Positions 1-47,650 of a DNA stretch of 53,272 nt are shown in pieces. The DNA lies in assembly GCA_963575745.1 (NCBI GenBank), contig CAUYUJ010000331.1, forward strand, positions 62,001-115,272, read 5' to 3'. The position numbers and the translations under genes were made by a program. This stretch comes from Prorocentrum cordatum. Taxonomy: Eukaryota. The notes under the pieces are model-generated. The model made no database searches. It saw nothing but the letters and a program-made list of their open reading frames with translations, and had not been told where the DNA came from. Every line of letters starts with the position of its first letter. Position 1 is the stretch's first letter.

Positions 1-2055
1 TCGCGCTCTTGATATACCAGCCGATATCATTGTGCCGATGATTGAACCCATGATTGATAATCAGTGTGTGGCCAGCTTCGAGGGCATCGAGGCATCTTCA
101 GCTGTCTATTGGGACAAATCTATTCGAACGGGAGGAGTGGAGGGGCCGATGATTTTTCTAGCAGTATCTATTGTACTCTGGAGAGATGTGATTGGCAGGC
201 GGAGGCAGGATACGCAGTACGGTATCAAGTTGGAAAATGATGAGCGCATGTTCAACGGTGAGCGTATGACCCACAGTTTCTGGGCAGATAATCTCTTATT
301 GTATGCGACGACTCGCTCTGACCTCGAGCTGATGGTGCGTGACATGAGTATCCCGCTGATGAATGCAGGAATGACCTGCCGTCTTGTGATCCTCTCTCGG
401 GGCCCGAGAGGTGGTCCTGCCGCGTGTTCAGTCGTTTGAGATCCTGGGAGCCACTCTGGAGGAAACCTGGAAGGACCACTCGGATTCAGAGGCCATGCTC
501 CAGAAAGCCCAGAAGGTATTCTTTTGGGAAATCGCCTATTATCGCTGTTCTGGCATTGATTTGGCTGAGGGATTTCCTCGCTATCAAGCTAAAGTGATTG
601 CTGCATTATTATTCAACTGCGAGGGCCGAACGCCCGACTATTCCACCATTGCTGCTGTTCACCCCTTTGAGGGGAGACGCCTGGCGTTGATGTCAGGTCT
701 ACGCAAGCGGAGAACTGAAGGATGGTCTGAGTTTCAACGTAGGCGATACAAAGTTGGACGGCAGAGGTTTGTTGAGCTTGGATTTCGAAGTGCGGTGCAG
801 ATATGGATATTTCGTTGTTGGGATTGGGCCAAGGATGTCTCAGTTGCTGCAAGCATTCGTATGGGGAGGTACACAACACACACAGTGGAGGAGGAGGTGG
901 AGACGGTACCAAATCGGCGTCAGAGAAAAACTCGGGCGATGGCGGCGGCGGCGGCTTCTCAAGTATCCCAGATCTCCCAGATGTCGAGTGGGGGTCGTCG
1001 GCGGACAACGGATGATCAGCCTGCCATACCTGAGGAGTCGAACATCTCACGTGAATGGATGATATCTAGGCTGGCCATGCTACATGGAAGGGGGAGGTGG
1101 ACGGAACATCGGGACACATGTATTCTGGCGTTGCCTGCAAAAGATAGGAAGCATCTCACACGCATGAGCATGGGTGCACCCGCCCGTGGACATACTGTAT
1201 GGGATTGGTGTTTGTGCGATCTCTTTGGTTGTGAGTGGTACCTCTCGTTCGACAGCTCCGCTGGGCCCCGCGAGAAATATTGCAAACATCTGCTGACTGT
1301 GATTGGCATGCAACACTTGTTCGAGTTATTTGTTTTACCCAGGCCACCTGGTGTGAGGCACGCGAAGGCGGAGGAGAAGGTGGAGAGAGAGATGAATGAG
1401 AGGATTCGCAAACGTATTGCCGCTAATTTTGAGAATGAAACGGAGTGGAGGTGTGAAAGTATTGAACGTCTTGGGATGGAAATCTTGGGAGATAGTAAGA
1501 CGGTCGTTAACTGGATGTGTGGTGAGTGGCAGATACGTAACAAGCAGTATGTACGACTGGTGGGAACACTACAAAATACTCTATCGATGCTGTATGGATG
1601 GGGGACTGACCTCACCTGCATCGGGACATAATCTGTATAAACATTTCTTTCGCGAGGGCAATGAACGCGCGGGTAGATTGTCGTGGGAGGCCAGAGGTGG
1701 CCAAACTATTACTCGCTGGTTTGCATATGATCAGTTCCTCAGTACTCGTAAGACTGCTCTCCGCGGTGCATTCGATGGGGGTGTCATTAATGAAGGATGT
1801 GGAGGCAAGTGGCGGCTTCAGATTGGCGTAGTAGGTAGGGGTTCCAGCGTGCAGGTTGATTTTCCCATCTCCTCCTCCTCCTCCTCCTCCTCTTCCTCCT
1901 GCATCAGCTCGCAGAGCTTCCATTGGCACGATGTGGCCGAGGAGGCGATGAGCTTGCCTCCAGGTAGCACGGCAACCTGCTGCGAACTAGCTGCCTGCGC
2001 TGCCCTGACGAGAGCTGCTGCTAAGGTGGCGTGCGCCCTGCTGCGACCTACCTGA
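1..2055 (+). pseudogene. Frameshifted LINE ORF2 (RT C-terminal half, thumb, permuted RNase H)
   Basis: ORFs 32-439, 411-1631 and 1396-2055 are consecutive pieces homologous to the intact ORF2 at 9650-13600: LGDSKTVVNWMCGEW vs QGDSLLVINWLCGKW; HFFREGNERAG vs HSFREWNQKAD; AFDGGV vs GFDGGV; TCCELAA vs TDTELSAA. A (TCC)n expansion lies at ~1869-1900. Confidence 0.88.
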
Positions 2056-6083: not shown

Positions 6084-6243
6084 AGTGCTTTCTCTTGGTG
6101 ATGCCTGCCCCTGCGGGCTCGGCAGGGCCATGTTGCAGATGCCTCAGCCACCCTGGCTCGGCAGTGTTGCTGTTTTTCTTGGCTCGTTTGGAGCCCGCTC
6201 GCTGCCCCATTGGGGCCCGACCGCGAGACCGCAAACCGCAAAA
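5620..6243 (+). mobile_element. Unclassified retroposed segment (SINE-like or LINE 3' UTR) ending in the family A tail; 5' boundary approximate
   Basis: Ends GACCGCAAACCGCAAAA (~6227-6243), matching the family A tail at 2112-2128. No recognisable coding content. Contains (CT)n. Confidence 0.45.
6041..6081. repeat. (CT)n microsatellite
   Basis: About 20 perfect TC units. Confidence 0.97.
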
Positions 6244-8202
6244 CAAATGATCAAAGTTCCTTATCCACAGTCGTGGCGACAGATCCTCATCTCTTTTATG
6301 CCGAAGATTCCAAGGATTCTGAATCTAAAAGATGGTCGTTTGCTTTGTATGCAGAATAAGGCTTCCAGATGGTTCAGCTCCTGTACTGTTCTTCTGGCGG
6401 ATGACCATGTTGAGAGAAACGGTGTTTTTCGTCGTATTGGGTTGTATGGTTTCCAGGAGCATGGACGTACACATGATATAACAGCTAGCCTCAAACACAT
6501 AGGACAACATGCTGCTAACTGGGGGAAAGGGGGAACACCTGGCGAACGCAGACGTCCTTCATGCGTTCGACCACTGCACGGTGGCCAATGTCAGGCGTGG
6601 GTTGGATCATGCTGCTGTGCCTTTGTGTATGTACAGTATGCTCTACTTAATCCCCTGTGTGAGTGTGTCGGTATGTTTGTTCTGATGGAATTGAGGTGTT
6701 GGAGGTGGAGTGGGCAAGTGTATGCGGACGGGAGGGCCTGAGGGCCCCTTGGCTTTCAATCTTATCGTTGCCGCCATGTGGAGTTCTACGATTCGTGAAC
6801 GGGACGTGTTAGGATTAGGTTATCGTATTGAGATTGCTACTTGTTCGACTAATTGTGCTTCGATTATTAATCGTTTCCTTTGGGCAGATAGCTGTTACGT
6901 TCTGGCTCGGAGTCGGGGGGGAACTCACTCGCATGCTACACGGTCTAACTATACATCTACATAAATACGGTATGAGATGGAAGGAGTCCAGTATTCTATA
7001 CATGGTGTTCGGTGCTGTTCTCCCGCGTTACGCTGAAAGGGGAAATACCACAGTCAGCGGACCTTGTTCTCTCGCTGGGGACGGAACGTTCTGGAGTCTA
7101 TTGTTTCAGGAGGGTGACGGAGATGGAGGTACTTGGGGTTCACATAAGCTCATAACTACACGTGAACGAGCACCGAGAGTATCGATCAGGCTCGGAGGGC
7201 CTTCTGGGGACAGGCAGCCTTCTTTCGCTCCACGGCCATTCCGCTGAAGGATAAATACGAGAGATACGCGCAAAGAGTTCAGAGTATCTGGTAATTCGTC
7301 GCAGAAGGTTGTGCTGTATTCTTCTCCCTTGGGAGCTTTGCATATCTTTGAAAGTAAATGTTTGGCTGTCATGTGTCGTTGTGCACGGGGGGAGCAGGAC
7401 GCGTATCAGGAGTGGAATACGAAGAGGTATGAGACAGCAACACAGAAGTTTCATGATGCACAGTATGCGAGTATTGTACATAAGTTCCTCCATGTGCACT
7501 GGCTGTGGGCTATCGACGTTGCTAAATTTGCCCGCAATCTGCTGACGAGTCAGGAGGCGCTCGAGACAAATTCGACACGGGCGTGGAGAGATTCTCGTTT
7601 CTCATGCCTGGCGTTTCGCCGGTTGTGGGATAGAATGAGAACTGACTCAAGGGAGGTTCTCAGATGTTGGAGGAAATGGAAAGAGGCCAGCGCTTCAACT
7701 GGCGCCGGCGGTGAGCCGTCAACCTGGTCACCGCCGGGAACCTCGTGGAGCTACTCCCACGCGTTACGTGCTCAGAGTCGAAAGAGAGAGCTTCTCAAAG
7801 CAATTCTCGAAAAATTGACCATTATTTTTTTTCATGTCGACATGAAGTTGGTTCCCCCAAATGTTCTGATTGTAAATTTGCGCCTACAGAGCTCATATTG
7901 AGACGCAGAGGCCCTCATAGTCTTTTCCAAGTGCGAAAAAACTGCTTTCTCAAAAAAAAATGGCCAAATGTCTCTCACATCTAAGCAAAACCGACCAAAA
8001 GTTGTCACAGTGTCCCTTCTGCTCGGGTCGACCAACTAGCTCCACCCCGCGACGGAAGTCCTCTAGCTCATCGATGCCGAAAAGATCTACGAGGCACGAC
8101 ATCGTGGGGGCAGGAAAGGCTCGGGCTTCGATCTTGGTATCGCTCTTTGGAATCGTTGCACGGTCTATCCTGGTGCGAATCGTTCGTCGGGAGCTTTGAA
8201 CA
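6244..8202 (+). pseudogene. Decayed internal ORF2 fragment of LINE family B, interrupted at 7699-8096 and cut off at 8203 by S elements
   Basis: Translations match the intact ORF2 across several frameshifts: PYPQSWRQILISFMPK, GLYGFQEH, RTGGPEGPLAFNL, FLWADSCYVL, RAWRDSRFSCLAF. After 8096 it resumes with RHRG..QERLGLRSWYRSLES and GSFEH. Confidence 0.92.
7699..8096 (-). mobile_element. Complete 398-bp S1 non-autonomous element (Helitron2-like) inserted in LINE coding DNA without a TSD
   Basis: Starts on + as A|CTGGCGCCGGCGGTGAGCCGTCAACCTGGTCACCGCCGGGAACCTCGTGGAGCT and ends GATCTACGAGGCA. LINE homology is continuous across the two flanks. Confidence 0.85.
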
Positions 8203-9395
8203 CTGGCGCCGGCGGTGAACCTTCAACCTGTCACCCCCGGGAACCTCGTAGAGCTCCTTGTATCCGTAAGAAAGCTCAGGGTCAAAGCATAGAGCTCTGG
8301 GAGCTTTTCTAGAAAAATGTCAAATTGAGATTTTTCGGAGTCAACATCAAGTCGGTTCCGGGAAGTGAACTGGTACTAAAACTGGCTCCAGAGAGCTGAG
8401 CTGCTCAGGGAACAGAGTTTATATGCCAATGCTCGGCGTGAAAATCTGCTTTCTCAAAATCAATTGTCAAATATCCTTCAAATCATAGCAAAACCAACCC
8501 AAAGTTGTCACACTATCCTTTCTGGTCGGGTCGGCCAACTAGCTCCAGCCCGCGCCGGAATTCCTCCAGCTCATTGACTGGCGCCGGCGGTGAACCGTCA
8601 ACCCGGTCACCACCGAGAACCTCGCGGAGCTCCTCCCTCGCGTAAAGTGCTCAGAGTCGAAAGAGAGAGCTTCTCGAGGCATTTCTCGAAAAAATAAAAT
8701 TCATTTTTTTTATGTCGAGATGTAGTTGGTTCCGCCAAGTGTTATGATTGTAAATTCGCGCCTACAGAGCTCATATCAAGACGCAGAGGCCCTCATAGAC
8801 GCTTACAGGTGCGAAACATCTGGTTTCTCAACATGAATGGTCAAATGTCTTTCAAATCTTGGCAAAACCACCCAAAACTTGCCACATTGTCCTTTACTGT
8901 CCGGGTCGACCAACAAGCTCCACCCCGCGCAAAAATTCCTCTAGCTCATCGATGCCGAAGAGCTCTACGAGATACTAGCTCCACCCCGCGCCGGAACTGG
9001 GAGCCGGCGGTAAACCGTCAACCAGGTTACCGCCAGGACCGTCGTAGAGCTCTCCAACGTAATAGTGCTCAGACATCGATTATATAGCTTATGTGAAGAG
9101 TGACCTCAGAATAATTCAATTCAAAATAATATTCAGTGTAGTATGAAGATTTTCCATCAAGTTTTGTGTTTACATTGGAACTCGAGATCTAGACATTGAA
9201 TAGCGCGTCGTAACCTACTACATGTGCAGAGAAAAACTCGAATAATGTATTTTCCTTGAAGCTGTTCTCAAATGCATGAGACCATTATCATTTTTGCAAA
9301 TTAAATCCGACGGCGAACGGTTCCTCCACGTTTTTTCATAGCAATATACGGACTGAGGATTTAACTGGCGCCAGCGGTGAACCGTCAACCTGGTC
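8203..9395 (-). mobile_element. Nested S-type elements (hairpin ends at 8203, 8578, 8997, 9365)
   Basis: Repeated A|CTGG(G)CGCCGGCGGTRAACCGTCAACC...ACCGCC termini and a shared ~350-bp body. Confidence 0.82.
9385..9395. repeat. Left copy of the 11-bp target-site duplication TCAACCTGGTC
   Basis: Identical to 15276-15286. Removing the LINE and one copy restores the hairpin GCGGTGAACCGTCAACCTGGTCACCGCCGGG. Confidence 0.92.
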
Positions 9396-9649
9396 TTTTG
9401 CGTCTTTGCTGGGACCGTCTTGGCCACTGAGGCCAGGTCCAACAAAGTCTCAGGCAAAACAGAGCCTCTTATTCATCACGCAAGCAGTCAGCTCTTATAC
9501 CACACAGCGAAGCTGAAGGAATAAAGAGAATCACATGCCGCAATGACACAATCAAACGCAAAGAACACACAGATAATCGAGGAAGTCAGTGAGCAGCGAA
9601 GCTGCAGGAATATACAAGACACAGAAAAGAAGAAACAATGTGTGTCAAA

Positions 9650-12600
9650 TCACTGCGAATGATCAAAGAAGGTCTGCACAACCTGTGGGAGCACCTCGCA
9701 TATGCGCTCCGCCGCCGATAGCTCCGTATCTGTAACAGTGGCGCTCGGTGGTAGACACCAAGCCGCAAGATACACATCCTTGAAAATGATGTCGGTCCGC
9801 GAGAAGATATACTTGTTTCGCAGACCAATCTGTATCCATGCACCACAGGCACTTCCGCGGCTACAAACTCCCCCATCAAAGCCGGCTTTGATAAGGCAAG
9901 GAATATAACACTGAGATTCAAAGTCGTTGAGGTAAACGAAATCGGCGTACACATGGCCCTGACGGGCCTGATGGGTCAGTAAGTCTGCTTTCTGGTTCCA
10001 TTCCCGAAACGAATGAGAGAAGAAGTCACGGCCGGCCTCTGGAGGCCTCACCAAGTAAGTTTCCTGCATTTCGTCCAACTTATTAATCAGAGTATCCACC
10101 CTTTTCTGATATACCTGAGCTAATACTTTCCATTTCCCGCAGAGCCAGTTAATAACAAGCAGTGAGTCCCCTTGGATGTCCAGTGGTATCCCATCTGTAT
10201 CGAGGTCCCACTGTGTACAACGCATATTATGCAACGCAATACGTTTGCTGAGGCGATCCCTATATGCTGGTGTATCCTCCCGATCCTGACCGATATGAAC
10301 CCCTCCATCCTCATCCAAGTTCAAGAATACAGGCACCCCTGAGGACGCCAACCCTTTACACTTCTTTTGGAAGTACTTCAACATAGCACTAGAACAAACA
10401 TTAGCAGCGAAGTCCATGAAATGCTCAAAACTTCCAGCAAAGAACTCCCACCAGGATAAACCGTAAAACGATTCCAATGAATAATACCACGGACGGAGTC
10501 CGACGCTCTCCTGTCCCCCCCGATGCCTTTTCATAGAGCTGGCCTCCTTCCAGTTTCCCCAACATCTGAGAGCCTCACTTGGATCCGTCCTCATTCTATC
10601 CCACAGTCGGCCAAACGCCAGACATGAGAAACGAGAATCTCTCCAAGCTCTCATCGAGTTCGCCTCCAGCTCCCCCCGATCTGTGATCAGCCTGTGTGCA
10701 AAGTCCTGGATGTCAATTGCCCATATCCAATGCACTCTGAGAAACTTCTGCACAATGCCCACGAAGTGAGCATCATGAAATTTTTGTCTCGCACGTTCAT
10801 ACCTCCTCGTATTCCATTCCTGGTAACTTTCCCCCTCCCTCCGTATACAGCGAGACATTACAGACAGGCACTTGCCCTCAAAGATATGAAGGGCGCTCAA
10901 TGAACTTGAATCGACCGTGCATCCTTCCGCCGCGTAGAGCACAATACTCTGAACTCTCTGAGCATACCTCTCATACTTATCTTTCAACGGGATGGCCGTG
11001 GAGCGGAAGAAGGTCGCCTGCCCCCAGAAGGCCCTGCGAGCACAGTCAATACGAGCGTCCAAATCATGATGTTCATTCACATGTAGTTCAGAACAAATAT
11101 AAGCCCCCAGCACCTCCATCTCCGTCGTCCTTCTAAATCGATACACTCCAGACGCCTCCGACCCCACCGAGAGAGCAAGATCAGCAGTGTGAAGTATTTC
11201 CCCTTCCACATCTCGCGGCGGCTCGACCCCGAACACCATATACAATAGGCTGGATTCCTTCCATCTCATTCCATAATCATGTAACTGTGTAGTTAGACCG
11301 TGTAACATGCGTGTGAGTTCCTCTCGACTCCGAGCCAATACATAACAGTTGTCAGCCCAAAGGAAATGATTAATAATCGAAACACAGCTAGTCGAGCCAG
11401 TCACATACTCAATACGATAACCTAGTCCTAGTACGTCCCATTCTCGAATCGTGGAGCCCCACATAGCAGCAACGATGAGATTGAAGGCCAACGGTCCCTC
11501 GGGCCCTCCCGTCCGAATACATTTGTCCCACCTAACCTCCACCACCTCAATCCCATCATAATAGACAGTGCCTACACATTCGCACAAGGGGTCAAGTAGA
11601 GCATACTGTAGGTAAAGGGGTACATCCGCATGATCCAACCCGCGCCTGACATTGGCCACCGTGCAGTGATCGAACGCCTGAAGGACATCAGCGTTCGCCA
11701 AGTGTGCCGTTTCCCCTTTTCCCCATTGTGCAGCATGTTGACCTATGTGTTTGATGCTAGCCGTGATTTCGTGTGTACGACGGTGTTCCTGGAAACCATA
11801 CAACCCAATATGACGAAACACTCCTTTTCTTTCAATATGACCCTCAACCAAGAGAACAACACAGGAACTGAACCATCTCGAAACAGCATTCTGCATACAC
11901 AGCAAACGTCCGTCTTTTAACTTAGTGATCCCTGGAGTTTTTGGCATAAAAGAGACGAGAATCTCACGCCACGACTGAGGATACGGAATCGTGAGCTTGA
12001 TGATTTTATCGAACAACTTCTGGATCGCTCTGAGAGCACACCACGGCAAGCTCCTTAGAATCTCGCACGGTATCCCGTCTGGCCCAGTAGCCCTCTGGGT
12101 CTTCAGCCGAGCTCGTGCTCTGAGAAGCAGCGCCATACTAATTCCCACAACTGATGTGGAACGTATCTCATGTACAGCCCTCATCCTGATCTCCTCCATC
12201 ATACTGTTGGTGGAATTGCGTATCTCTTCGGACGACACCTTGCAACGAACGAACTTGTCGAGCTCCTCCTTCCACTCCTCACGGTCCTCCGTCTCCCTCC
12301 CATCCACCACTAAATGTTTGATAGTATATCTGACCTTTCTTTTTGTTGGGGGACATCTGCACATAATCATATCACGTCGATAACCTCTGCGTAGACGATT
12401 AGCCTCATTCTTTAACCTCCTCAACCTCTCCACTTCCTCCTTCGGACACATCTTAACCTCCTCCTCCGCTCTTGTGAGCTGCACCGGCCTGGACGGCTCT
12501 CTCTGTCTTCTCGCACCCGTGGTGGAGTAGTCCACCGTCGGTGACAAGTACGCCTCCAGCATAGTACTCTCCAGACCCTGTGGACAGGTCACAGACGGAC

Positions 12601-13600
12601 ACCTTGAAAAGGCAGCACCGCCTAGATACGAATCCACATGCTGTCGAGCCTGATGCTCATCAGCCCAAGTCGAACACTTGTATCCGACCAGAGACGGCCT
12701 AGACTTCTGACCAGGCTGGGGGTCAGGGCGACGAACAATCACGTTCCCAGGGTCAGTGAAACTCGCCGTGATGATTGCGTGATCGGATAATCTACTGAAC
12801 TGCTTCTTCCCACCCCTCTTGAAACACCACTTCACCTCCAGATCCGAGAACTCCCAACGGTGAGGGACCATTAGGTAATCCAGGACCCTCTTCGAAGTCA
12901 GAAACTTGTTCTCCCCCCACGACTCCCAGGTATGCCTCCTAGTACAGAAAGTGTTGGCGGCCTTCAGTCCATGCGATTCCATGAACTCTAACAGCAGCTC
13001 CTTCAGCCTCCTCCTCCGACTCCTCCTTTCAATCTGCTGTGTACCGTCTCCTCCTCTCTCCCACCTTCTGTCCGTACGAGTACCTTCCTTTCCAGTAGCC
13101 TCATACTCCTCCCCATTATACGTAAATCTGCATCCAGGCGGAATCTCCACGTTTGCATCTAGCAGAACACAAAAGCTGGCCTGAGGAAACTTAGTGCGGA
13201 GAACATTGCGAGCACGACCGATCTGCTCATATACCTCCGCAGCAATCTCAACACAATCCTCCACATGAGGGTCTGGCAAATACGCTGACACAATAATGAG
13301 TGGTGACTTCTCTGACCCAAAGACACCGATAACGAACCTCGTGAAACAAGTGAAAAACATACGGACGGCAGCCGCCCAAGATCTGTCGAAGATGAGAGCT
13401 GCCTTACTACACGAACTAGTTTTGATGCGCCACCCCAAGCGTTCAAATTCCCCGTGCACTAGGTATTGAGTTTCCTGACATGCAAAGAGCCCACCACATG
13501 CCCTCATATGATGGAGAATCTCAGCACATTTGAAATGAGCCTCCCCTGCTTTGTTCAGGTTCCAGCTCGCTAAGCGTATGCCTCGGACGAGGCGCCGCAA
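9650..13600 (-). CDS. LINE ORF2: APE endonuclease, reverse transcriptase and C-terminal RNase H-like domain (1316 aa); no ATG ahead of the first APE motif
   Basis: APE: SWNL, CQET, SAYLP, LDAN, HTW, LDYL, SDH. RT: ATGPDGIP, YGFQ, ADVLQAFD, IRTGGPEGPLAFNL, FLWADN, EVLG. Thumb: RIDCARRAFW, VQSIVLYAAEG. RNase H: GDS, HSFREWNQKAD, FDGG, TEL. Confidence 0.95.
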   Translation of the reverse strand: MRRLVRGIRLASWNLNKAGEAHFKCAEILHHMRACGGLFACQETQYLVHGEFERLGWRIKTSSCSKAALIFDRSWAAAVRMFFTCFTRFVIGVFGSEKSPLIIVSAYLPDPHVEDCVEIAAEVYEQIGRARNVLRTKFPQASFCVLLDANVEIPPGCRFTYNGEEYEATGKEGTRTDRRWERGGDGTQQIERRSRRRRLKELLLEFMESHGLKAANTFCTRRHTWESWGENKFLTSKRVLDYLMVPHRWEFSDLEVKWCFKRGGKKQFSRLSDHAIITASFTDPGNVIVRRPDPQPGQKSRPSLVGYKCSTWADEHQARQHVDSYLGGAAFSRCPSVTCPQGLESTMLEAYLSPTVDYSTTGARRQREPSRPVQLTRAEEEVKMCPKEEVERLRRLKNEANRLRRGYRRDMIMCRCPPTKRKVRYTIKHLVVDGRETEDREEWKEELDKFVRCKVSSEEIRNSTNSMMEEIRMRAVHEIRSTSVVGISMALLLRARARLKTQRATGPDGIPCEILRSLPWCALRAIQKLFDKIIKLTIPYPQSWREILVSFMPKTPGITKLKDGRLLCMQNAVSRWFSSCVVLLVEGHIERKGVFRHIGLYGFQEHRRTHEITASIKHIGQHAAQWGKGETAHLANADVLQAFDHCTVANVRRGLDHADVPLYLQYALLDPLCECVGTVYYDGIEVVEVRWDKCIRTGGPEGPLAFNLIVAAMWGSTIREWDVLGLGYRIEYVTGSTSCVSIINHFLWADNCYVLARSREELTRMLHGLTTQLHDYGMRWKESSLLYMVFGVEPPRDVEGEILHTADLALSVGSEASGVYRFRRTTEMEVLGAYICSELHVNEHHDLDARIDCARRAFWGQATFFRSTAIPLKDKYERYAQRVQSIVLYAAEGCTVDSSSLSALHIFEGKCLSVMSRCIRREGESYQEWNTRRYERARQKFHDAHFVGIVQKFLRVHWIWAIDIQDFAHRLITDRGELEANSMRAWRDSRFSCLAFGRLWDRMRTDPSEALRCWGNWKEASSMKRHRGGQESVGLRPWYYSLESFYGLSWWEFFAGSFEHFMDFAANVCSSAMLKYFQKKCKGLASSGVPVFLNLDEDGGVHIGQDREDTPAYRDRLSKRIALHNMRCTQWDLDTDGIPLDIQGDSLLVINWLCGKWKVLAQVYQKRVDTLINKLDEMQETYLVRPPEAGRDFFSHSFREWNQKADLLTHQARQGHVYADFVYLNDFESQCYIPCLIKAGFDGGVCSRGSACGAWIQIGLRNKYIFSRTDIIFKDVYLAAWCLPPSATVTDTELSAAERICEVLPQVVQTFFDHSQ

Positions 13601-13603
13601 ACG

Positions 13604-15001
13604 TCACTGCCTACGATTCACTTCCTGAAGTATATCATTCATGGGAACCTTCAGCGCCGGATAAAAAGAAACAATACGAGCCCATGCATCAGCATGAAGA
13701 ACCCAAGCCCCTGTGGTATTCGTATACGTCGCAAAACAGACGGGTCGGAAATTCGTAACAGCTTGAGTCCAAATCTGACTTCTCGGTGGCCCCACCTCCC
13801 CACGGATCTCGATTTGAACATGAGCCGAGGTCATACTACGCCAAGTCCCACAGAAACGAGCAACCGCTTTCACATGATCACGCTTCCAGGGTGCACACTC
13901 CACTAACGTACGAATCTTTCTGGGATCGATTGGCGTGTCCATATCATGAGTGAGAACATCGGCATCTGGATACGTATAACCTGGGGGCGGGGCAATGCGG
14001 TCGGCGGGTTCCTTACAGACCATATCCATCCATTTCTTTATTCTCCAAAGAGTGTCCCGTGGTGTCCCTTCTTTGAAACCGACCTTCACACTGCCGTACA
14101 TATATCTTCCTCCGTTTAAACGTTCAGTTTTATCTTTATCGTAAGCATTCCTTTCCTCCCCCTGAAGTGTCCCAATCATATTAGATATTAACTGTGCCGC
14201 ATCTGCCCAGGGTATCATTTGATTTCCCCGATTTACTTGATTCGACCAATCCGTAACCCACCCTTTCAGCTCGAGATAAGTTGGTGTGAACTGGCTCGAT
14301 CGCTCCTGTTGCACGCGAGGGAACGAACCTCCACCACCACCAGAGGAGCCACCAGGGCCCACACTAGTCGAAACCGAAGCTGCAGGAGATCCAGCCAAAA
14401 TTTGCTTAACCTGTTTCTCCAAAATCTCTGTCCGTGCATCTGATTTGTCCATTCTCTCCGTATGCAACTTGAGTGTGTCATCCACTCTTTTGATGTCCGT
14501 CTTCGTCGATTGAACAACATGGATGAGATCCTCATGGGCATCCTCCGTTTTCCAAACATGCTTCATCATCATCTGTTTGAATGGATCCTTCTCCTTTTCT
14601 AACATCACTTTCCTCTCCTCCTCAATCTCTGTTCCACGTGCACGTTTGGATCGAGTCTCACCATCCCCAGTCATCGCGGCATCCGCCGCTGCTGCAACAT
14701 GAGTCATATCTTCAAGAATATTACCGTTCAATCCGTATTTATCTAACCAGCTCCTATCGTCCTCACGTTGACGTTTGTTTGATGCTGCCTCCAGTGCCTG
14801 CAGATCTTTCTGATCCCACGGCTGGTATTCCTCAAGGTAATCAAAGTTGACTCTCTCGTCCTGGTAGTCTTCTGTGGGTATGTCCAGATTCCTTTGACGC
14901 CGAAACCACTCCTCAGTACTTTCACCCCAATGCTCGAGTCCTATCTCTCTCCTCAATGCCAGCTGAGCCTCAGGACTGTCGGACGACGTGATTGTCAACA
15001 A
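13604..15001 (-). CDS. LINE ORF1, probable coiled-coil nucleic-acid chaperone; start uncertain (TTG at 15001, first ATG at 14707)
   Basis: 465 open codons directly upstream of ORF2 and inside the TSD-bounded unit. Heptad-like segment DIKRVDDTLKLHTERMDKSDARTEILEKQVKQIL, a Gly/Ser linker, then a globular-looking region. Function is inferred from position. Confidence 0.8.
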   Translation of the reverse strand: MLTITSSDSPEAQLALRREIGLEHWGESTEEWFRRQRNLDIPTEDYQDERVNFDYLEEYQPWDQKDLQALEAASNKRQREDDRSWLDKYGLNGNILEDMTHVAAAADAAMTGDGETRSKRARGTEIEEERKVMLEKEKDPFKQMMMKHVWKTEDAHEDLIHVVQSTKTDIKRVDDTLKLHTERMDKSDARTEILEKQVKQILAGSPAASVSTSVGPGGSSGGGGGSFPRVQQERSSQFTPTYLELKGWVTDWSNQVNRGNQMIPWADAAQLISNMIGTLQGEERNAYDKDKTERLNGGRYMYGSVKVGFKEGTPRDTLWRIKKWMDMVCKEPADRIAPPPGYTYPDADVLTHDMDTPIDPRKIRTLVECAPWKRDHVKAVARFCGTWRSMTSAHVQIEIRGEVGPPRSQIWTQAVTNFRPVCFATYTNTTGAWVLHADAWARIVSFYPALKVPMNDILQEVNRRQ

Positions 15002-15257
15002 CGGTCAACAAGGACACGTCGAACGACGTGATAGTCAGTAACTACCACCCGTTCAATAAGAGGTAAAGAATGCTGACAGACAATGAACAGCAGTGCAGCA
15101 CACCAGAGAATCTCAATACCACGAAGAAGAATATAGCGTACAATACAAGAGATGTAGAGTAGCAGACAAAAACCTCGAGGGAACCCAGGCAAGCCGGGCT
15201 CACACCCCGAGGCCAGGGCTCGCTAGAACGTCTGGAGGTTCCCCAGGCAGAGACGTT

Positions 15258-15265
15258 CTTGAGCC
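15258..15265 (-). other. Possible relic of the dinoflagellate spliced leader (GGCTCAAG) at the LINE 5' end
   Basis: The minus strand reads AGAACGTCTC-GGCTCAAG-AACGTCTC. GGCTCAAG is the 3' end of DinoSL (DCCGTAGCCATTTTGGCTCAAG). Only 8 nt, but in the expected place and orientation. Confidence 0.55.
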
Positions 15266-15275
15266 GAGACGTTCT

Positions 15276-15652
15276 TCAACCTGGTCACCGCCGGGAAACT
15301 CGTAGAGCTCCTTTCACGCGTGAGAGAGCTCAGAGTCGAAAGAGAGAGCTGCTCGAGGCATTTCTCAAAAATTGAACATTGATTTTTTTCATGTCGAAAT
15401 GAAGTTGGTTGCTCCAAGTGTTTCGGTCGTAAAAGTGCGCCTAGAGAGCTCATATTAAGACGCAGAAGCTCGCATAACCTTTTACAGGTGCGAAAAATCT
15501 GCTTTCTCAAAATAAATGGTCAAATATCCTTCAAATATTCGCAAAACCACCCAAAAGTTGCCACTTTGTCCTTTCGGGTCGGGTCGACCAACTAGCTCCA
15601 TCCCGCGCCGGAATTCCTCTCGCTCATCGCTGCCGAAGAGAACTACGAGGCA
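15276..15652 (-). mobile_element. Remainder of the S1 element hosting the LINE (includes the right TSD 15276-15286)
   Basis: TCAACCTGGTCACCGCCGGGAAACTCGTAGAGCTC, the S1 body and the terminus GAACTACGAGGCA. Confidence 0.88.
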
Positions 15653-16035
15653 CAGGCGAACGCACCACAACCTAATCCACGTTAGAAAAATAGTGGTTTC
15701 CAAAACGGATTTTGAAATTCGAACCGGCGGTAAGCCGTCAACCAGGTAACCGCCGGGGCCCTCGTAGAGCTCTTTTCTCGCACGGCGCTGCTCAATGCAC
15801 ACAAAGGAACCGTCTGGAGCAAGACCCAAAAAACTCGAAAAATCATGTTTTCACGTTTTATCTAAAGACGGTTGCTCCAAGTGTTTTGATGGTAATACTG
15901 CACCTACAGACCTAAGAATTTAACGGGCAGACGCGGCATAACCCACTACAGGTGCGAAAAATCGAAAAATCTTGTTTCTCAAAATGAATGGTCAAATAGC
16001 TTTGAAATGTTCGTAAAACCACCCAAAAGTTGTCA

Positions 16036-17108
16036 CTGGGCGCCGGCGGTAAACCGTCCACCTTTCTTACCGCCGGGGGACTCGTAGAGCTTCTTGACAA
16101 TGTAAAATGTCGAAAAAATTGTGGAGAACGAATAGTTTTTCAGCCCAAGCGATTTCAGACCTCTCGATGCAACAGCCGAACGCCCCCGATGCTTCTGGAT
16201 TGTCTTCTGCACGAGCTCTGTAGCTCTCCTACAGCCCGAGTTACGTGCGTAAATCGACAGCACCTCTCAAGATGACTCGAACAAAACGAACAGTTTGGCA
16301 AACCCAGCTCGAGCATCAACGAGTTCAGACCTCTTAATGCGACAGGCGGACGCGTCTGATGTCTCCGAATCGATTCCTGTGATTACCAGCCCTGCAGCCC
16401 CCCTACAGCCCGAGTTAAGTGCAGAAAACCGACAGCACCTCTCAGGATGACTCGAACAATACGAATAGTGTCGCGGACCTAGTTCGGCAGCAGACGGAGT
16501 TCCGAGCTCTGGGTTCGACAGGCGGACGGGCCTGATGTCTTCAAAATCGATTCCTGTGACCACCAGCACTATAGCCCTTCACAGCCCGAGTTAAGTGCAG
16601 AAACCGACAGCATCTCTCAAGATGACTCGAACAATACAAATAGTTTCGCGATTCTAGATCGGGCAGGAGACCGAGTTGAGAGCTCTGGATTCAACAGACA
16701 AACGGGAATGATGATTCTGAATCGGTTTCTGTAAGTCTCAGCTCTGTAACTGTCCCATAGCTCAAGTTAAGTACAGAAAACCGAGAGCGCCTGTCAAGAT
16801 GACTCGAATAATACGAATAGGTTTGTGGACCTAGCTCGGCTAGCAGACCGACTTCAGACTTCTGGATGCAACAGACGAACGCGCCTGATCATTCTGAATC
16901 GATAAGGTGTGCTTACCAGCTCTGTAGCTGTCCTGTGTCTCGAGTTAAGTCCAATATACCGGCAGCGCATCAAGATGACTCCAAACGGCCGATCCCGCCT
17001 GGACACTTTTTGGCAGTAAAAGGTACCCGATCGAGCTGAGATCAAGATGGCGAGCGGGAATAAGATCGAATATCACGGGAAAAAATGCTAGAGCTCTAAC
17101 GAATGGTT
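16036..17108 (-). mobile_element. L-family element with ~178-bp internal units, truncated at the rDNA fragment
   Basis: CTGGGCGCCGGCGGTAAACCGTCCACCTTTCTTACCGCCGGGGGACTCGTAGAGCTTC, the repeat units, then the conserved GGTACCCGATCGAGCTGAGATCAAGATGGCGAGCGGGAATAAG block. Confidence 0.82.
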
Positions 17109-17109
17109 G

Positions 17110-17439
17110 AAGACACAAAGACGATGACTAAATGGTTCTATTCGACCCGTCTTGAAACGCGGACCAAGGAGTCTAACATATGTGCGAGTCCACGGGTGGT
17201 AAACCTGCTGGCGCAGTGAAAGCGACTGCTGGGATCTTTGCACCAGCAACCGACCAATCAATTGAGAGAGGTTTGAGTATGAGCATATCTGTTAGGACCC
17301 GAAAGATGGTGAACTATGCCTGAGAAGGGCAAACTCAAGGGAAACTCTGATGGAGGCTCGTAGCGATACTGACGTGCAAATCGTTCGTCATACTTGGGTA
17401 TAGGGGCGAAAGACTAATCGAACCATCTAGTAGCTGGTC

Positions 17440-32797: not shown

Positions 32798-34061
32798 CTG
32801 GGCGCCGGCGGTAAACCGTCAACCTTTCTTACCGCCGGGGGACTCGTAGAGCTTCCTGACAACATATAATGTCGAAAGAAATTACACAGGAAAAATAGTT
32901 TTTCAGCCCAGGCAATTTGAGACCTCTCGGATACAACAGCCGAACGGCCCCGATGCTTCTAGATTGTCTTCTGCACGAGCTCTATAGCTCTCCTAGAGCC
33001 CGAGTTACGTGCGTAAATCAACAGCACCTCCCAAGATGACTCGAACAATACAAATAGTTTGGCAAACCTAGTTCGAGTATCAGACCGAGTTCAGATCTCT
33101 GCATGCGACAGGCGGACGCGTCTGATGTCTCTGAATCGATCCCTGTGATTGCCAGCCCTGCAGCCCCCCTGCTGCCGAGTTAAGTGCTGGAAACCGACAG
33201 CACCTCTCAGGATGACTCGAACAATACGAATAGTTTCGCGGACCTAGTTCGGGCAACAGATCGAGTTCAGAGCTCTGGATTCCGCAGGCGAACGCGCCTG
33301 ATGTCTCCGAATCGATTCCAGTGATTACCAGCCATGCAGCCCCCCTACAGCCCGAGTTCAGTGCAGAGAACCGACAGTATCTCGCAAGCGACTCAAACAA
33401 TACGAATAATCTCGCAGTTCTAGATCGGGCAGCAGACCGAGTTCAGAGCTCTGGAGTGATCAGACAACGGCCACTGATGATTCCGAATCGGATTCTGTAC
33501 GTATCAGCTATGCATATGTCCTGCAGCTCGAGTTAAGTACAGAAAACCGAGAGCGTCTGTCAAGATGACTCGAGTAATACGAATAGGTTTGCGCACCTAG
33601 CTCGGCTAGCAGACCGAGTTCAGACCTCTAGGTTCGACAGGCGAACGCGCCTGATCATTCTGCATCGATTAGCTGTGCTCACCAGCTCTGTAGCTGTCCT
33701 GAACCTCGAGTTATCTTGATAAAACCGACAGCGCATATCAAGATGACTCGAAACGGCCGATCCCGCCTGCCTGCTTTTTGGCAGTAAAAGGTACCCGATC
33801 GAGCTGAGATCAAGATGGCGAGCGAAAATAAGATCGAATATAACGGGAAAAAATACTAGAGCTCTAACGAATTGTTGAATTTCGAAAACAAAATTTTCAA
33901 CCGACCAAAAAACACCAAAAGGTCCGTCGAGATTTTTCTTGCCAACTAGCTCTCCAGCGCCCCGGAACTTGTAAGCGTCCAAAACCCGGATCGCGAAGCC
34001 AGGCGCGGAGCGCGAAGCGCTCCAAAACGCCGCACGGGGACCTCTGCCGTGCCGCTTGAAA

Positions 34062-40920: not shown

Positions 40921-43900
40921 CTGGGCGCCGGCGGTAAACCGTCAACCTTTCTTACCGCCGGGGGACTCGTAGAGCTTCCTGACAGTATATACTGTGGAAA
41001 AAAAAAACTCCAAAGAACGACTAGTTTTGCAGCCCAAGCGATTTCAGACCTCTGAGGATGACTCTAACCAAAAAACAAACAGTTTCGCGACCCAGTTCGA
41101 GCATCGAACCGAGTTCAGACTCTTAATGCGACAGGCGGGCGCGTCTAACGTCTGTGAATCCACTTATGTGATTCCCAGCTCTGCAGCTCCCCTACAGCCC
41201 GAGTTCAGTGCAGAAAACCGACAGTATCGATTCGAATAATAGAATAGTTTTGCGGACGTAGTTCGAGCAGCAGACCGAGTTCTGAGCTGTGGACTCTCCC
41301 AACAGACGCGCCTGATGTGTGCAAATCGATATCTGTGACCCGCAACACTGTAATCCTCCCCCAGCACGAGTTGAGTGCAGAACATTGAGAGCACGTCTCA
41401 AGATGATTCGAACAATACGAATAGTTTCGCAAACCTAGCTCGGGCAGCAGGCCGAGTTCAGAGCTTTCGGTTCAATAGACGAACGCGACTGATCATTTCC
41501 CATCGATGTCTGTGATAATGAGCTCTGTAGCTGCCCTATAGCTCGAGTTAAGTACAGCAAAACGAGAGCGTCTGTCAAGACGACGAATAATACGAATAGG
41601 TTTGCGAACCTAGCTCGGCTAACAGACCGAGTTCAGACTCTCGATTCAACAGGCAAGTGTGCCTGATAATTCTAAATGCGATAGGTGTGCTTAACAGCTC
41701 TGTAGCTGCCCTACAGCTCGAGTGAAGTACAGAAAACCGAGAGCGTCTGTCAAGACGACTCGAATAATACGAATAGGTTTACGGACCTAGCTCGGCTAGC
41801 AGACCGAGTTCAGACCTCTGGATTAAACAGACGAACGCGCCTGATAATTCTGAATGCGATAGGCGTGCTCACCAGCTCTGTAGCTGCCGTACAGCTCGAG
41901 TTAAGAACAATATACCGACAACGCGTATCAAGATGACTCGAAACGGCCGATCCCGCCGGACGCTTTTTGGCAGTAAAAGGTACCCGATCGAGCTGAGATC
42001 AAGATGGCGAGCGGGAATAAGATCGAATATCACGGGAAAAAATACTAGAGCTCTAACGAATGGTCAAATTTCGAGAACAAAATTTTCAACCGACCAAAAG
42101 TCAGCAAAACGTCCGTCGAGATTTTTCTTGCCAACTAGCTCTCCAGCGCTCCGGAATTACTCTTAAGCTTCCAGCAATAACTGGGCGCCGGCGGTAAACC
42201 GTCAACCTTGGTTACCGCCGGGGGACTCGTAGAGCTTCCTAACTCGACTTAAGTTGAGAAAACAGAGAGCACTTACTAATAATCAAACTTATAGTGAATA
42301 GTTTTTTACCTTTCAATGCGAGAGACGGACGCGTCTGATGTCTGCGAATCGACTCCTGTCATTACCAGCCCTGCAGCCCCCCTACAGCCCGAGTTAAGTG
42401 CAGAAAACCGACAGCACCTCTCAGGATGACTCCGACAATAGGAATAGGTTCGCGAACCTAGTTCGGGCAGCAGACAGAGTTCAGAGCTCTGTATTCGACA
42501 GGCGGACGCGCTTGATGTCTTCAAATCGATTTCAGTGATTACCAGCCATGCAGCCCCCCTACAGCCCGAGTTAAGTTCAGATGACCGACAGCATCTCGCA
42601 AGCGACTCGAACAATACGAATAGTTTCGCGATTCTAGATCGGGCAGCAGACCGAGTTCAGAGCTCTGGATTCGAAAGAGAATCGCGATTGATGATTCTCA
42701 ATTCGTGCCTGTAACTATCAGCTCTGTAGCTGTCCTACAGCTCGAGTTAAGTGCAGAAAACCGAGAGTGTCTGTTAAGATTACTCGAATAATACGAACAG
42801 GTTTGCGGACCTAGCTCGGCTAGCAGACCGAGTTCAGACCTCTGGGTTGGACAGACGAACGCGCCTGATCATTCTGCATGCATTAGCTGTGCTTACCAGC
42901 TCTGTAGCTGCTCTAGAGCTCGAGTTATGTTCGGAAAACCGTCAGCGCATATCAAGATGACTCAAAACGGCAGATCCCGCCACAGTGCTTTTTGATAGTA
43001 ATATTCACCCGATCGAGCTGAGTCAAGATGGCGAGCGGGAATAAGATCGAATATCACGGGAAAAAATACTAGAGCTCTAACGAATGGTCAAATTTCGAGA
43101 ACAAAATTTTCAAACGAGCAAAAGTTGTCAAAAGTTCTGTCGAGATTTTTCGAGCCAACTAGCTGTGGGGCGCGCCAGAATTACTCTTAGCTTCCAGCAA
43201 TAACTGGCGCCGACGGTGAGGCGTCAACCTGGTCACCGCCGGGAACCTCGTAGAGCTCATTTCACGCGAAAGAGTGCTCGGAGTCGAAAGAGAGAGCTTC
43301 TGGAAGCATTTCTCGAAAAAGAGAAAAATTGATTTTTTTTCGTGTCGACATGAAGATGGTTGCGCCAAGTCTTTTGATAGTAAACGTACGCCTACAGAGC
43401 TCATACTAAGACGGAGAGGCCCTTATAGTCGTTTACAGGTGCGAAAACTCTGGTTTCTCAAAATGAATTGTCAAATATTTTTCAAAAAATCGCAAAAGCA
43501 CCCAAAAGTTGCCACATTGTCCGCCTCGGCCGGGTGGGCCAACTGGGCGCCGGCGGTAAGCCGTCAACCTTTCTTACCGCCGGGGGACTCGTAGAGCTTC
43601 CTGACAATATATAACGTGGGAAAAAATTTCAGAGAACGACTAGTTTTTCAGCCCAAGCGATTATAGACCTCTCAAGATGACTCTAACAAAACAAACGAAC
43701 AGTTTTCCAATCGAGCTCGAGTATGAAACCGAGTTCAGACCTCTGAATGCGACAGGCGGGCGTGTCGGATGTCTGCGGATCGATTCCTAGGATTACCAGC
43801 TCTGCAGCCCCCCATACAACTTAAGTTAAGTGCAGAAAACCGAGAGTACCTCTCAGGATGACTCGAATAATACAACAGTTTCGCGGATCTCGTTCGAGCA

Positions 43901-46958: not shown

Positions 46959-47650
46959 GACCTAGCTCGTCTAGCAGACCGAGTTCAGACCCCTGGATCC
47001 GACAGGCGAACGCGCCTGATGATTCTGAGTGCGATAGGTGTGCTTATCAGTTCTGTAGCTGCCCTGCAGCTCGAATTCAGTACAAAATACCGACAACGCG
47101 TATCAAGTTGACTCGAATACTACGAATAGGTTTGAGGACCTAGCTCAGCTAGCACACTAATTTCAGCCCTATCGATTCAACAGGCGAACGCGCCTGATGA
47201 TTCTGAGGGCGATAGGTGTGCTTACCAGCACTGTAGCTGCCCTACAGCTCGAGTTAAGTAGAAAATAGCGACAACGCGTATGAAGTCGACTCGAATAATA
47301 CGAATAGGTTTGCGGACCTAGCTCGACTAACAGACCGAGTTCAGACCTATGGATTCAACAGACGAACGCGCCTGATGATTCTGAGTGCGATCAGGGTGCT
47401 TACCAGCACTATAGCTGCCGTACGGCTCGAGTTAAAGAGCAAATATCGACAACGCGTATCGAGTTGACTCGAATAATACGAATAGGTTTGCGGACCTAGC
47501 TCGGCTAGCAGACCGAGTTCAGACCTCTGGATTCAACAGACGAACGCGCCTGATCATTCTCAGTGCGATAGCTGTGCTTACCAGCTCTGTAGCTGATCTA
47601 GAGCTCGAGTTAAGTACAAAATACCGACAGCGTGTATCAAGATAACTCGA
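46959..47650. repeat. 178-bp tandem repeat inside an L element (representative array)
   Basis: GACCTAGCTC starts at 46959, 47137, 47315 and 47493, a period of 178. Confidence 0.95.

Follow-up and report, generated by a model that had tools for sequence, protein, structure and literature searches.

The locus considered here raises the question of whether a reverse transcriptase (RT) whose active site lacks one catalytic aspartate can be the working enzyme of a mobile element. A triad of three aspartates is, by standard teaching, common to all RTs, and mutation of the second Asp of motif C is the standard "RT-dead" control. In a 53,272-nt stretch of Prorocentrum cordatum DNA (positions 62,001 to 115,272 of contig CAUYUJ010000331.1; hereafter the window), we analysed a full-length long interspersed nuclear element (LINE)-type retrotransposon on the minus strand, whose RT reads WADN in place of YADD at motif C and RTGG in place of RQG at motif B. 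The results indicated that this RT probably belongs to a large and old clade in which Asn stands at the second Asp of YxDD and the preceding aromatic residue is Trp, and that the enzyme most likely still polymerises.

The two unusual motifs had been flagged in a sequence-only reading of the window, and their coordinates proved exact in the frame of the second open reading frame (ORF2; protein P0001), with WADN at 11359-11348 and IRTGGPEGPLAF at 11518-11483. The residues W717, A718, D719 and N720 were encoded by TGG GCT GAC AAC on the minus strand (Table 1). They were assigned to motifs C and B on the basis of the HMMER (phmmer) alignment to human LINE-1 (L1) ORF2p (8c8j), in which RTGGPEGPLAF fell on RQGCPLSPLLF and NADVLQAFD fell on SIDAEKAFD. 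According to the accessible part of PMC10830420, the triad of L1 ORF2p consists of D600, D702 and D703, and F605 is the steric gate. In the present protein, D607 and D719 were found at the first two triad positions and N720 at the third, so that the canonical three-Asp triad is incomplete, and the canonical Gln-Gly of motif B (RQG or LPQG) was replaced by T666-G667. The steric-gate Phe was kept as F612. A profile of six sequences matched L1 ORF2p (8.6e-10) and R2 (3.1e-7) in the PDB. Residues 440-960 of ORF2 were modelled with AlphaFold on the 118-row alignment described below, and the model exhibited a normal RT fold, with a predicted local distance difference test score (pLDDT) of 93.4 and a predicted template modelling score (pTM) of 0.90. 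The best PDB matches of this model in Foldseek were R2 8gh6 (E 1.7e-16) and L1 ORF2p 8c8j (E 2.6e-16), with TMq of 0.62-0.65. Residues 717-720 were located at the turn of a beta-hairpin, and a strand ended with D607; both placements are those expected for motifs C and A. The profile and model matches demonstrated that the domain is an RT of the non-LTR type, that is, of elements without long terminal repeats (LTRs).

The occurrence of Asn was then compared across relatives. A word-based homologue search retrieved five full-length relatives with 63-34% identity, and in the resulting six-protein alignment, with an overall identity of 28-56%, W717, A718, D719, N720, T666, G667 and D607 were all invariant. 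A profile of the RT region, searched against 1.84 billion representatives, gave 17717 matches at E <= 0.001, including 139 at E <= 1e-30. The analysed set (n=155) consisted of P0001, the five word-search matches and the best 150 of the 17717 profile matches, among which P0004 appeared again. The last two residues of motif C, covered in 138 proteins, were D-N in 95, D-D in 39, D-S in 2, N-N in 1 and E-D in 1. Its first residue was W in 117, F in 13 and Y in 8 of the same proteins, and WADD was found in 23/138. The D-N set included many full-length proteins of about 1100-1480 residues. The Asp of motif A was kept in 143/144 proteins, the sole exception being a fragment of the decayed copy in the window, and the A, F and D of the motif A AFD were each at least 90% conserved. 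At motif B (141 covered), QG was found in 107, TG in 28, MG in 2, AG in 2, EG in 1 and QS in 1, so that Thr stood at the Gln position in 28/141 and Gln in 108/141.

Trees were built from 118 rows, namely those in which at least 280 of the 447 positions of the profile and the two motif columns were occupied; these two columns were taken out of the alignment beforehand. The D/N state required three changes on the FastTree topology, compared with a mean of 32 after shuffling, and none of the 500 shuffles (0/500) gave so low a number. On the IQ-TREE topology (short search, LG+G4), four changes were required, and the well-supported branches alone forced three. Such a small number of changes on trees of 118 sequences indicated that the Asn is old. 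With the root placed on the 14-tip (Y/F)ADD clade, parsimony placed a single D-to-N change ancestral to 102 tips, a return to D in a 24-tip WADD clade and D-to-N changes in two single tips. It was further observed that Asn remained unchanged along branches totalling 66-87 substitutions per site, though Asp lies one transition away. On the evidence of the alignment, the state of N720 thus reflects purifying selection or strong entrenchment and not decay. The visibly decaying copy in the window is the one that lost the Asn (WADS). A second word-based search with the 118-row alignment retrieved 35 proteins and gained named entries, and no further D/N switches were found among them. A protein-atlas search matched only generic RVT_1 clusters. 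The nearest named relatives, P0173 and P0178, are annotated as "unnamed protein product" of Prorocentrum cordatum (63% of the query aligned, at 93% identity), and both carry RTGG and WADN. The sequence-only reading had proposed a natural two-aspartate RT and, as a check, a test for purifying selection as opposed to neutral decay. A natural, lineage-wide and selected Asn was supported by the invariance in the six closest full-length proteins, the D-N majority and the stability of Asn along the trees.

The same reading had suggested that WADN and RTGG co-vary. Among the 135 proteins with motifs B and C jointly covered, we found Q with D-N in 65, Q with D-D in 38, T with D-N in 24, T with D-D in 1 and other combinations in 7. 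Thus D-N was present in 24/25 of the T sequences, and most D-N enzymes kept RQG (65, compared with 24 with T). The motif B Gln position changed 14 times on the FastTree topology and 11 times on the rooted IQ-TREE topology, with T, M, A or E as the replacing residue and reversions included. All of them (14/14 and 11/11) fell on the Asn background, which makes up 68% of the tree length, and the probability of this concentration was about 0.004 (FastTree) and about 0.014 (IQ-TREE, our own arithmetic). Simple co-variation was therefore not found, and what stood of the suggestion is that the Gln was replaced only on an Asn background. In the alignment, the pattern is one of nesting of RTG within D-N, where WADN does not need RTG and the reverse nearly holds. 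A comparison of D-N with D-D rows over every alignment column pointed in addition to motif A. Lys or Arg stood at the position of L1 K603 (the x of xAFD) in 34/38 D-D rows compared with 9/80 D-N rows, and two residues before the catalytic Asp in 25/38 D-D rows compared with 0/79 D-N rows. P0021, a recent D-N row nested among D-D rows, keeps the K (KAFD). We take it as a lead, not a result, that the loss of Lys/Arg from motif A may compensate for the charge of the lost carboxylate.

Evidence of mobility was obtained from the boundaries of the LINE. A perfect 11-bp direct repeat, TCAACCTGGTC, flanks the LINE on both sides, and the perfect target-site duplication (TSD) claimed previously is therefore real. 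When the outer flanks were joined, an unbroken copy of a 375-470-bp repeat unit was restored, as found from 8553 onward, which shows that the LINE spans 9396-15275 and was inserted into that repeat. No terminal repeats of the LINE were found among the direct repeats of the window, indicating an element without LTRs; a TSD-flanked insertion of this kind is characteristic of the apurinic/apyrimidinic endonuclease (APE)-type non-LTR class. The 3' end before the TSD reads ..GACGCAAAA, with no long poly-A or simple-repeat tail, and the missing tail is compatible with membership in the LINEs, because dinoflagellate LINEs were reported without poly-A tails in the accessible sections of PMC5890265. 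With the perfect TSD and with ORF1 and ORF2 both open, the LINE looks recently mobile, in agreement with the earlier view that this lineage still retrotransposes. It is most likely an autonomous, recently inserted endonuclease-type element of a dinoflagellate. Its surroundings were also recorded: the LINE interrupts an array whose diverged repeat units measure about 375-470 bp (families D1-D8; 8000-9395 and 15287-16100), and the neighbouring unit (8553 onward) provides an intact "empty site" for comparison.

Parts of the LINE were found in 20 public sequencing runs, and four of these were examined in detail. In two DNA runs, contigs spanned the whole LINE (30/30 bins), and 161/459 and 1048/1917 contigs, respectively, were at least 99% alike to it. 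In two poly-A metatranscriptomes (X14 and X18), contigs were found only at 9396-11355 (10/30 bins), the 3' third of the LINE, and ended short of the WADN codons. Differences between copies numbered 170. Among the 40 best-supported differences listed, 33 were coding, and 21/33 of these were synonymous, compared with 22% expected by chance; three synonymous variants were located inside motif B and none at the WADN codons.

The same substitution has been characterised in Ty1. As described in the accessible part of PMC2148107, the D211N mutant (second Asp of YXDD) kept processive polymerisation with a 223-fold decrease in the polymerisation rate constant (kpol) and preferred Mn2+, and it lost transposition, which RNase H-domain suppressors restored to only 5-10%. 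The earlier statement that this change in Ty1 leaves polymerisation and blocks transposition is thus correct as far as that source goes. The accessible text of PMC3394715 adds that Mn2+ suppresses the defects of mutants at this Asp in poliovirus polymerase and human immunodeficiency virus (HIV) RT. For the LINE, we propose that DNA would be polymerised by the usual two-metal mechanism, with D607 and D719 as the metal-binding carboxylates, and that N720 would preserve the geometry of the hairpin and contact metal A, or a nearby third-ion site, more weakly and without a charge. The lost negative charge may be balanced by the missing motif A Lys/Arg (Q610 here), the motif B Gln (T666 here) may be under less constraint in the altered pocket, and metal preference or speed may be unlike those of D-D enzymes, as in Ty1 D211N. 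Since F612 is kept, the enzyme should still select deoxynucleoside triphosphates. Judging from its conservation and spread, the WADN enzyme is probably active. By analogy with the characterised mutants, the chance that its metal use or speed differs from that of D-D enzymes is appreciable, if somewhat below even. More tentatively, the active site may have been rebuilt in a coordinated manner, with the D-to-N change balanced in charge by the loss of the motif A Lys/Arg, the motif B Gln thereby freed and a different metal-ion regime adopted; we regard this as possible and on balance doubtful. If true, it would imply a weaker third-ion site and a dependence on Mn2+ or high cation concentrations, might suit the cation-rich, nucleosome-poor dinoflagellate nucleus, and would put an end to the rule of an invariant second motif C Asp across all RTs.

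Several points weigh against an old and active D-N clade, or against parts of the proposed mechanism. The census covered only the best 150 of the 17717 profile matches. The root was assumed, so that gain and loss of the D/N state are indistinguishable, and the trees were those of FastTree and a short IQ-TREE search under LG+G4. With Pfam, RVT_1 (PF00078) matched residues 569-750 of P0001 at 26.9 bits, below the gathering cut-off of 29.6 bits, which was passed by the relatives P0008 (32.3 bits), P0027 (41.4 bits) and P0037 (46.3 bits). The branch-length test for motif B presumes an even rate across the tree. An independent-pairs test of D-N against the motif A Lys/Arg yielded 2-3 contrasts, too few for the sign test to become significant (median p 0.5), and that against the motif B Gln had 2-3 usable pairs and no power. 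RNA support for the LINE is weak, and DNA carry-over in the poly-A libraries is possible. For every clade member, activity is a prediction from sequence and model, and the proximity of N720, Q610 and T666 is likewise supposed. The mutants themselves also count here: Ty1 D211N suffered the 223-fold drop in kpol and the loss of transposition, which by analogy may hold for the LINE, and in the accessible text of PMC3394715 viral polymerases and HIV RT with a substitution at the second motif C Asp are described as less active or inactive except in the presence of Mn2+.

These points can be read in other ways. If the Asn were functionally neutral, the second Asp of YxDD would be dispensable in these LINE enzymes, and drift would have fixed D-to-N a single time, with entrenchment thereafter. 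The enzyme would be an ordinary Mg2+-dependent LINE RT, unaltered in metal use, speed and fidelity, and the Asn would have no real coupling to motifs A and B. With only three to four D/N changes and a powerless pairs test, the associations with motifs A and B could indeed be due to shared ancestry. The retention of RQG by most D-N enzymes (65/89 with Q or T) and of K in P0021 also fits. Drift is nevertheless hard to reconcile with the long stability of the Asn, since a single transition (AAC/AAT to GAC/GAT) would restore Asp, and this points to selection that favours Asn itself, or to strong entrenchment. In addition, all 11-14 motif B Gln changes lie on the Asn background, and, in the accessible parts of the sources cited above, the same substitution alters rate and metal preference in Ty1, poliovirus polymerase and HIV RT. 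We consider neutrality unlikely.

An RT that is dead or crippled, copied in trans by the enzymes of D-D LINEs in the same genome, with ORF2 kept for its endonuclease or RNA binding only, would be in line with the failure of Ty1 D211N to transpose, as given in the part of that source cited above; D-D relatives (WADD) are indeed found in the same protein family, and activity of the WADN enzymes is a deduction. The conservation of both other catalytic Asp, the steric-gate AFD, the motif B glycines and the fingers-palm-thumb fold (pLDDT 93) speaks against it, as do the D-N majority with its many full-length proteins and the synonymous bias of variants between copies, including the three inside motif B. 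Moreover, it was the decayed copy, free of selection, that lost the Asn. A dead enzyme is thus quite improbable in our judgement. Least credible of all is A-to-I editing of the first base of AAC/AAT, by which Asp would be restored in the mRNA as GAC/GAT. One A-to-G change at the first base of the codon would suffice and the RNA contigs miss 11348-11350, but no A-to-G difference was listed at this site in any run (the site being without RNA cover). Two codons are in use (AAC at 11350-11348 and AAT at 290-292), hundreds of diverged lineages would each need an editing site, and edited templates would return as GAC on copying. The predicted proteins from many public assemblies, some of which may be transcript-derived, all read Asn. 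Collectively, a naturally D-N enzyme that still polymerises remains the preferred interpretation.

Table 1. Positions of the LINE, its reading frames and motifs, and related copies in the window.
Feature	Position	Strand	Basis or remark
Full-length LINE-type retrotransposon, 5880 bp	9396..15275	-	Bounded by TSD; flank joining restores neighbouring repeat unit
LINE layout: 5' untranslated region (UTR), ORF1, ORF2, 254-bp 3' UTR ending ..GCAAAA			
TSD copy at LINE 3' end, TCAACCTGGTC on the plus strand	9385..9395		
TSD copy at LINE 5' end, same 11 bp	15276..15286		
ORF1, 367 residues, stop TGA at 13606-13604	13604..14707	-	ORF list
32 sense codons between ORF1 TGA and first ATG of ORF2, frame common to both	13508..13603	-	
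ORF2 from first ATG (P0001), 1285 residues: endonuclease-like N-terminus, RT, RNase H-like C-terminus	9650..13507	-	
RT fingers and palm, ORF2 residues ~455-800	11108..12145	-	Pfam, profile, model
Motif A NADVLQAFD: D607 (= L1 D600), Q610 (L1 K603 position), F612 (= L1 steric gate F605)	11669..11695	-	
Motif B IRTGGPEGPLAF, I664..F675, T666 replacing Gln of RQG	11483..11518	-	
Motif C WADN: D719 (= L1 D702), N720 replacing L1 D703	11348..11359	-	
RNase H-like C-terminal domain, circularly permuted order, moderate support	9653..10210	-	ORF2 residues ~1100-1285
Family A copy of related LINE, cut by window start, three frames, at least 2 frame changes	11..1989	+	tblastn of P0001
Decayed copy, same family as intact LINE, stops and frame changes	6196..8206	+	tblastn of P0001

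Two further copies were found in the window. The family A copy carries WADN at 281-292 (TGG GCA GAT AAT) and IRTGG at 122-136. The sequence-only reading had taken this WADN as an independent occurrence. The motif is present as described, whereas independence in an evolutionary sense was not supported, because the family-A-like proteins P0005 and P0007 share with the intact copy one well-supported clade of 9 sequences, all with T and D-N. The pieces of the decayed copy showed 52-70% amino acid identity to the intact LINE, with WADS at 6881-6892 (..GAT AGC) and MRTGG at 6722-6736. As noted previously, its WADS is one transition from WADN (AGC compared with AAC, a single A-to-G). When the 3' ends of the intact and decayed copies were aligned, no shared 3' UTR was found, because the decayed copy is truncated.

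ORF1 and ORF2 lie in one frame, separated by only a single TGA (13606-13604, next base C), and the 32 codons between the ORF1 stop and the first ATG of ORF2 encode ..IRLASWNLNKAGEAHF.., including ASWNLNKAG. By our own reading, this string, upstream of the ORF2 ATG, is a candidate for the first endonuclease motif. Since an endonuclease-like motif precedes ATG 13507, ORF2 is probably translated by read-through of the UGA, giving an ORF1-ORF2 fusion, or by non-AUG re-initiation, and not from that ATG. The motifs QETQ, DANVE, LDY and SDH were conserved in the six-protein alignment of the ORF2 N-terminus, and we read them, together with SWNLNKAG, as putative motifs of an APE-type endonuclease. A Pfam search of ORF2 residues 1-286 gave no match; among the relatives, P0037 scored 20.5 bits with Exo_endo_phos_2 (cut-off 27.4), and the D-D relative P0155 reached 31 bits. 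For ORF1, no Pfam family was found above threshold and none with E < 0.08, and the DNA methyltransferase domain that is the hallmark of SymbioLINE-Dnmt was not found in it by Pfam.

The C-terminus of ORF2 was compared with the RNase H type 1 fold, which has the order b1-b2-b3-aA-b4-aB-aD-b5-aE with DEDD residues. All four RNase H motifs were found, in an order permuted relative to type 1. In 6/6 aligned proteins, GDS.. and REWNxxAD.., which are normally last, precede FDGG..G.G and TDTELSAAE, which are normally first. The AlphaFold model of this domain (pLDDT 91) likewise exhibited the order b4-aB-aD-b5-aE followed by b1-b2-b3-aA, and the sub-threshold Pfam RNase H matches of P0037 were permuted in the same manner. 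Only the first half of the domain (model residues 39-128) aligned to RNase H1 chains, with Z of 3.8-4.3 and 21-28% identity; the comparison with 3aly gave a probability of 0.98 over 83 columns. Foldseek returned no full-length match for the domain, and its top matches, CsgG and PelC, were rejected as meaningless (TM 0.2-0.27). The top VIA-align matches, HcgF, RlmH-like and CinA, were also set aside, because Z of 5-6 is at the level of a common arrangement.

Elsewhere in the window, an isolated 265-nt fragment of eukaryotic large-subunit (LSU) ribosomal RNA was found at 17173-17437 on the plus strand (261 bits, matching 675-954 of the 3401 model positions). It lies at the edge of a block with 64-70% GC (~18-24 kb) and long ORFs on both strands; no Pfam family was found for the long ORFs of the GC-rich block (17-24 kb) or for 495-1631. 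A 12-base string encoding YQDD occurs three times, and a YQDN variant once, on the plus strand (33736-33747, 41926-41937, 42950-42961 and 47635-47646). These strings fall within a strand-biased region at 26-53 kb and may point to a further retroelement family or to some repeated unit.

A mobile D-N LINE clade would provide a natural system for the role of the second Asp in the metal A and third-ion sites, in pyrophosphate release and in translocation, and would allow compensation for a lost active-site carboxylate to be studied. Filters that require YxDD, together with Pfam thresholds, will drop D-N elements or mislabel them as dead. The D-N enzymes could also be useful as tools.

The APE-type LINE is a known class, and the D-N active-site variant was not found described. 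No published D-N reverse transcriptase was retrieved in our literature search, whose scope lay outside subscription journals and Repbase, and the motif-string matches listed for WADN, YADN, FADN and YxDN were acronyms or gene names, none of them on RTs. Among dinoflagellates, a group with published work on host-gene retroposition (PMC12014239, accessible part), the closest described elements are the SymbioLINEs (de Mendoza et al. 2018, PMC5890265). Within the accessible text of that paper, they resemble the present LINE in their dinoflagellate host, in what is probably the same combination of Exo_endo_phos, RVT_1 and RNase_H, in their TSDs and conserved UTRs, in the lack of a poly-A tail and in 3'-biased transcription, which is like the RNA contigs on the LINE. 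Unlike SymbioLINE-Dnmt, the LINE has an ORF1 without a DNA methyltransferase, as judged by the lack of a Pfam match. With human L1 ORF2p (8c8j, 8sxt, 8uw3 and 9hdo) and R2 (8gh6 and 9dou), the LINE shares a probable endonuclease-RT architecture, two ORFs, a TSD as expected of target-primed insertion, the RT fold, the steric-gate Phe and the Asp residues of motif A and of the first Asp position in motif C. It differs from them in WADN instead of FADD/YADD, Thr instead of the RQG Gln, Gln instead of L1 K603, an identity of about 15%, the presence of an RNase H-like C-terminus and the absence of a long poly-A tail.

The Ty1 D211N mutant is alike in having the same substitution at the same position, and its RT polymerises without this carboxylate, according to the part of the Ty1 study considered above. 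It differs in being engineered in an LTR element, whereas the Asn of the LINE is natural and conserved in elements that are evidently spreading. A review-type analysis (PMC3394715, accessible part) describes the second motif C Asp as "invariantly" Asp in all RTs, and the D-N clade, on the evidence of its predicted proteins, contradicts this statement. A natural counterpart is found in birnavirus RNA polymerases, whose motif C hairpin has ADN at its apex and whose Asn, in the accessible parts of PMC3121795 and PMC3394715, still helps to bind an ion near the catalytic site. Birnavirus VP1 is an RNA-dependent RNA polymerase with permuted C-A-B motifs and is unrelated in sequence to the LINE RT, and it resembles that RT in its natural Ala-Asp-Asn at motif C and in being a right-hand polymerase that copies RNA.

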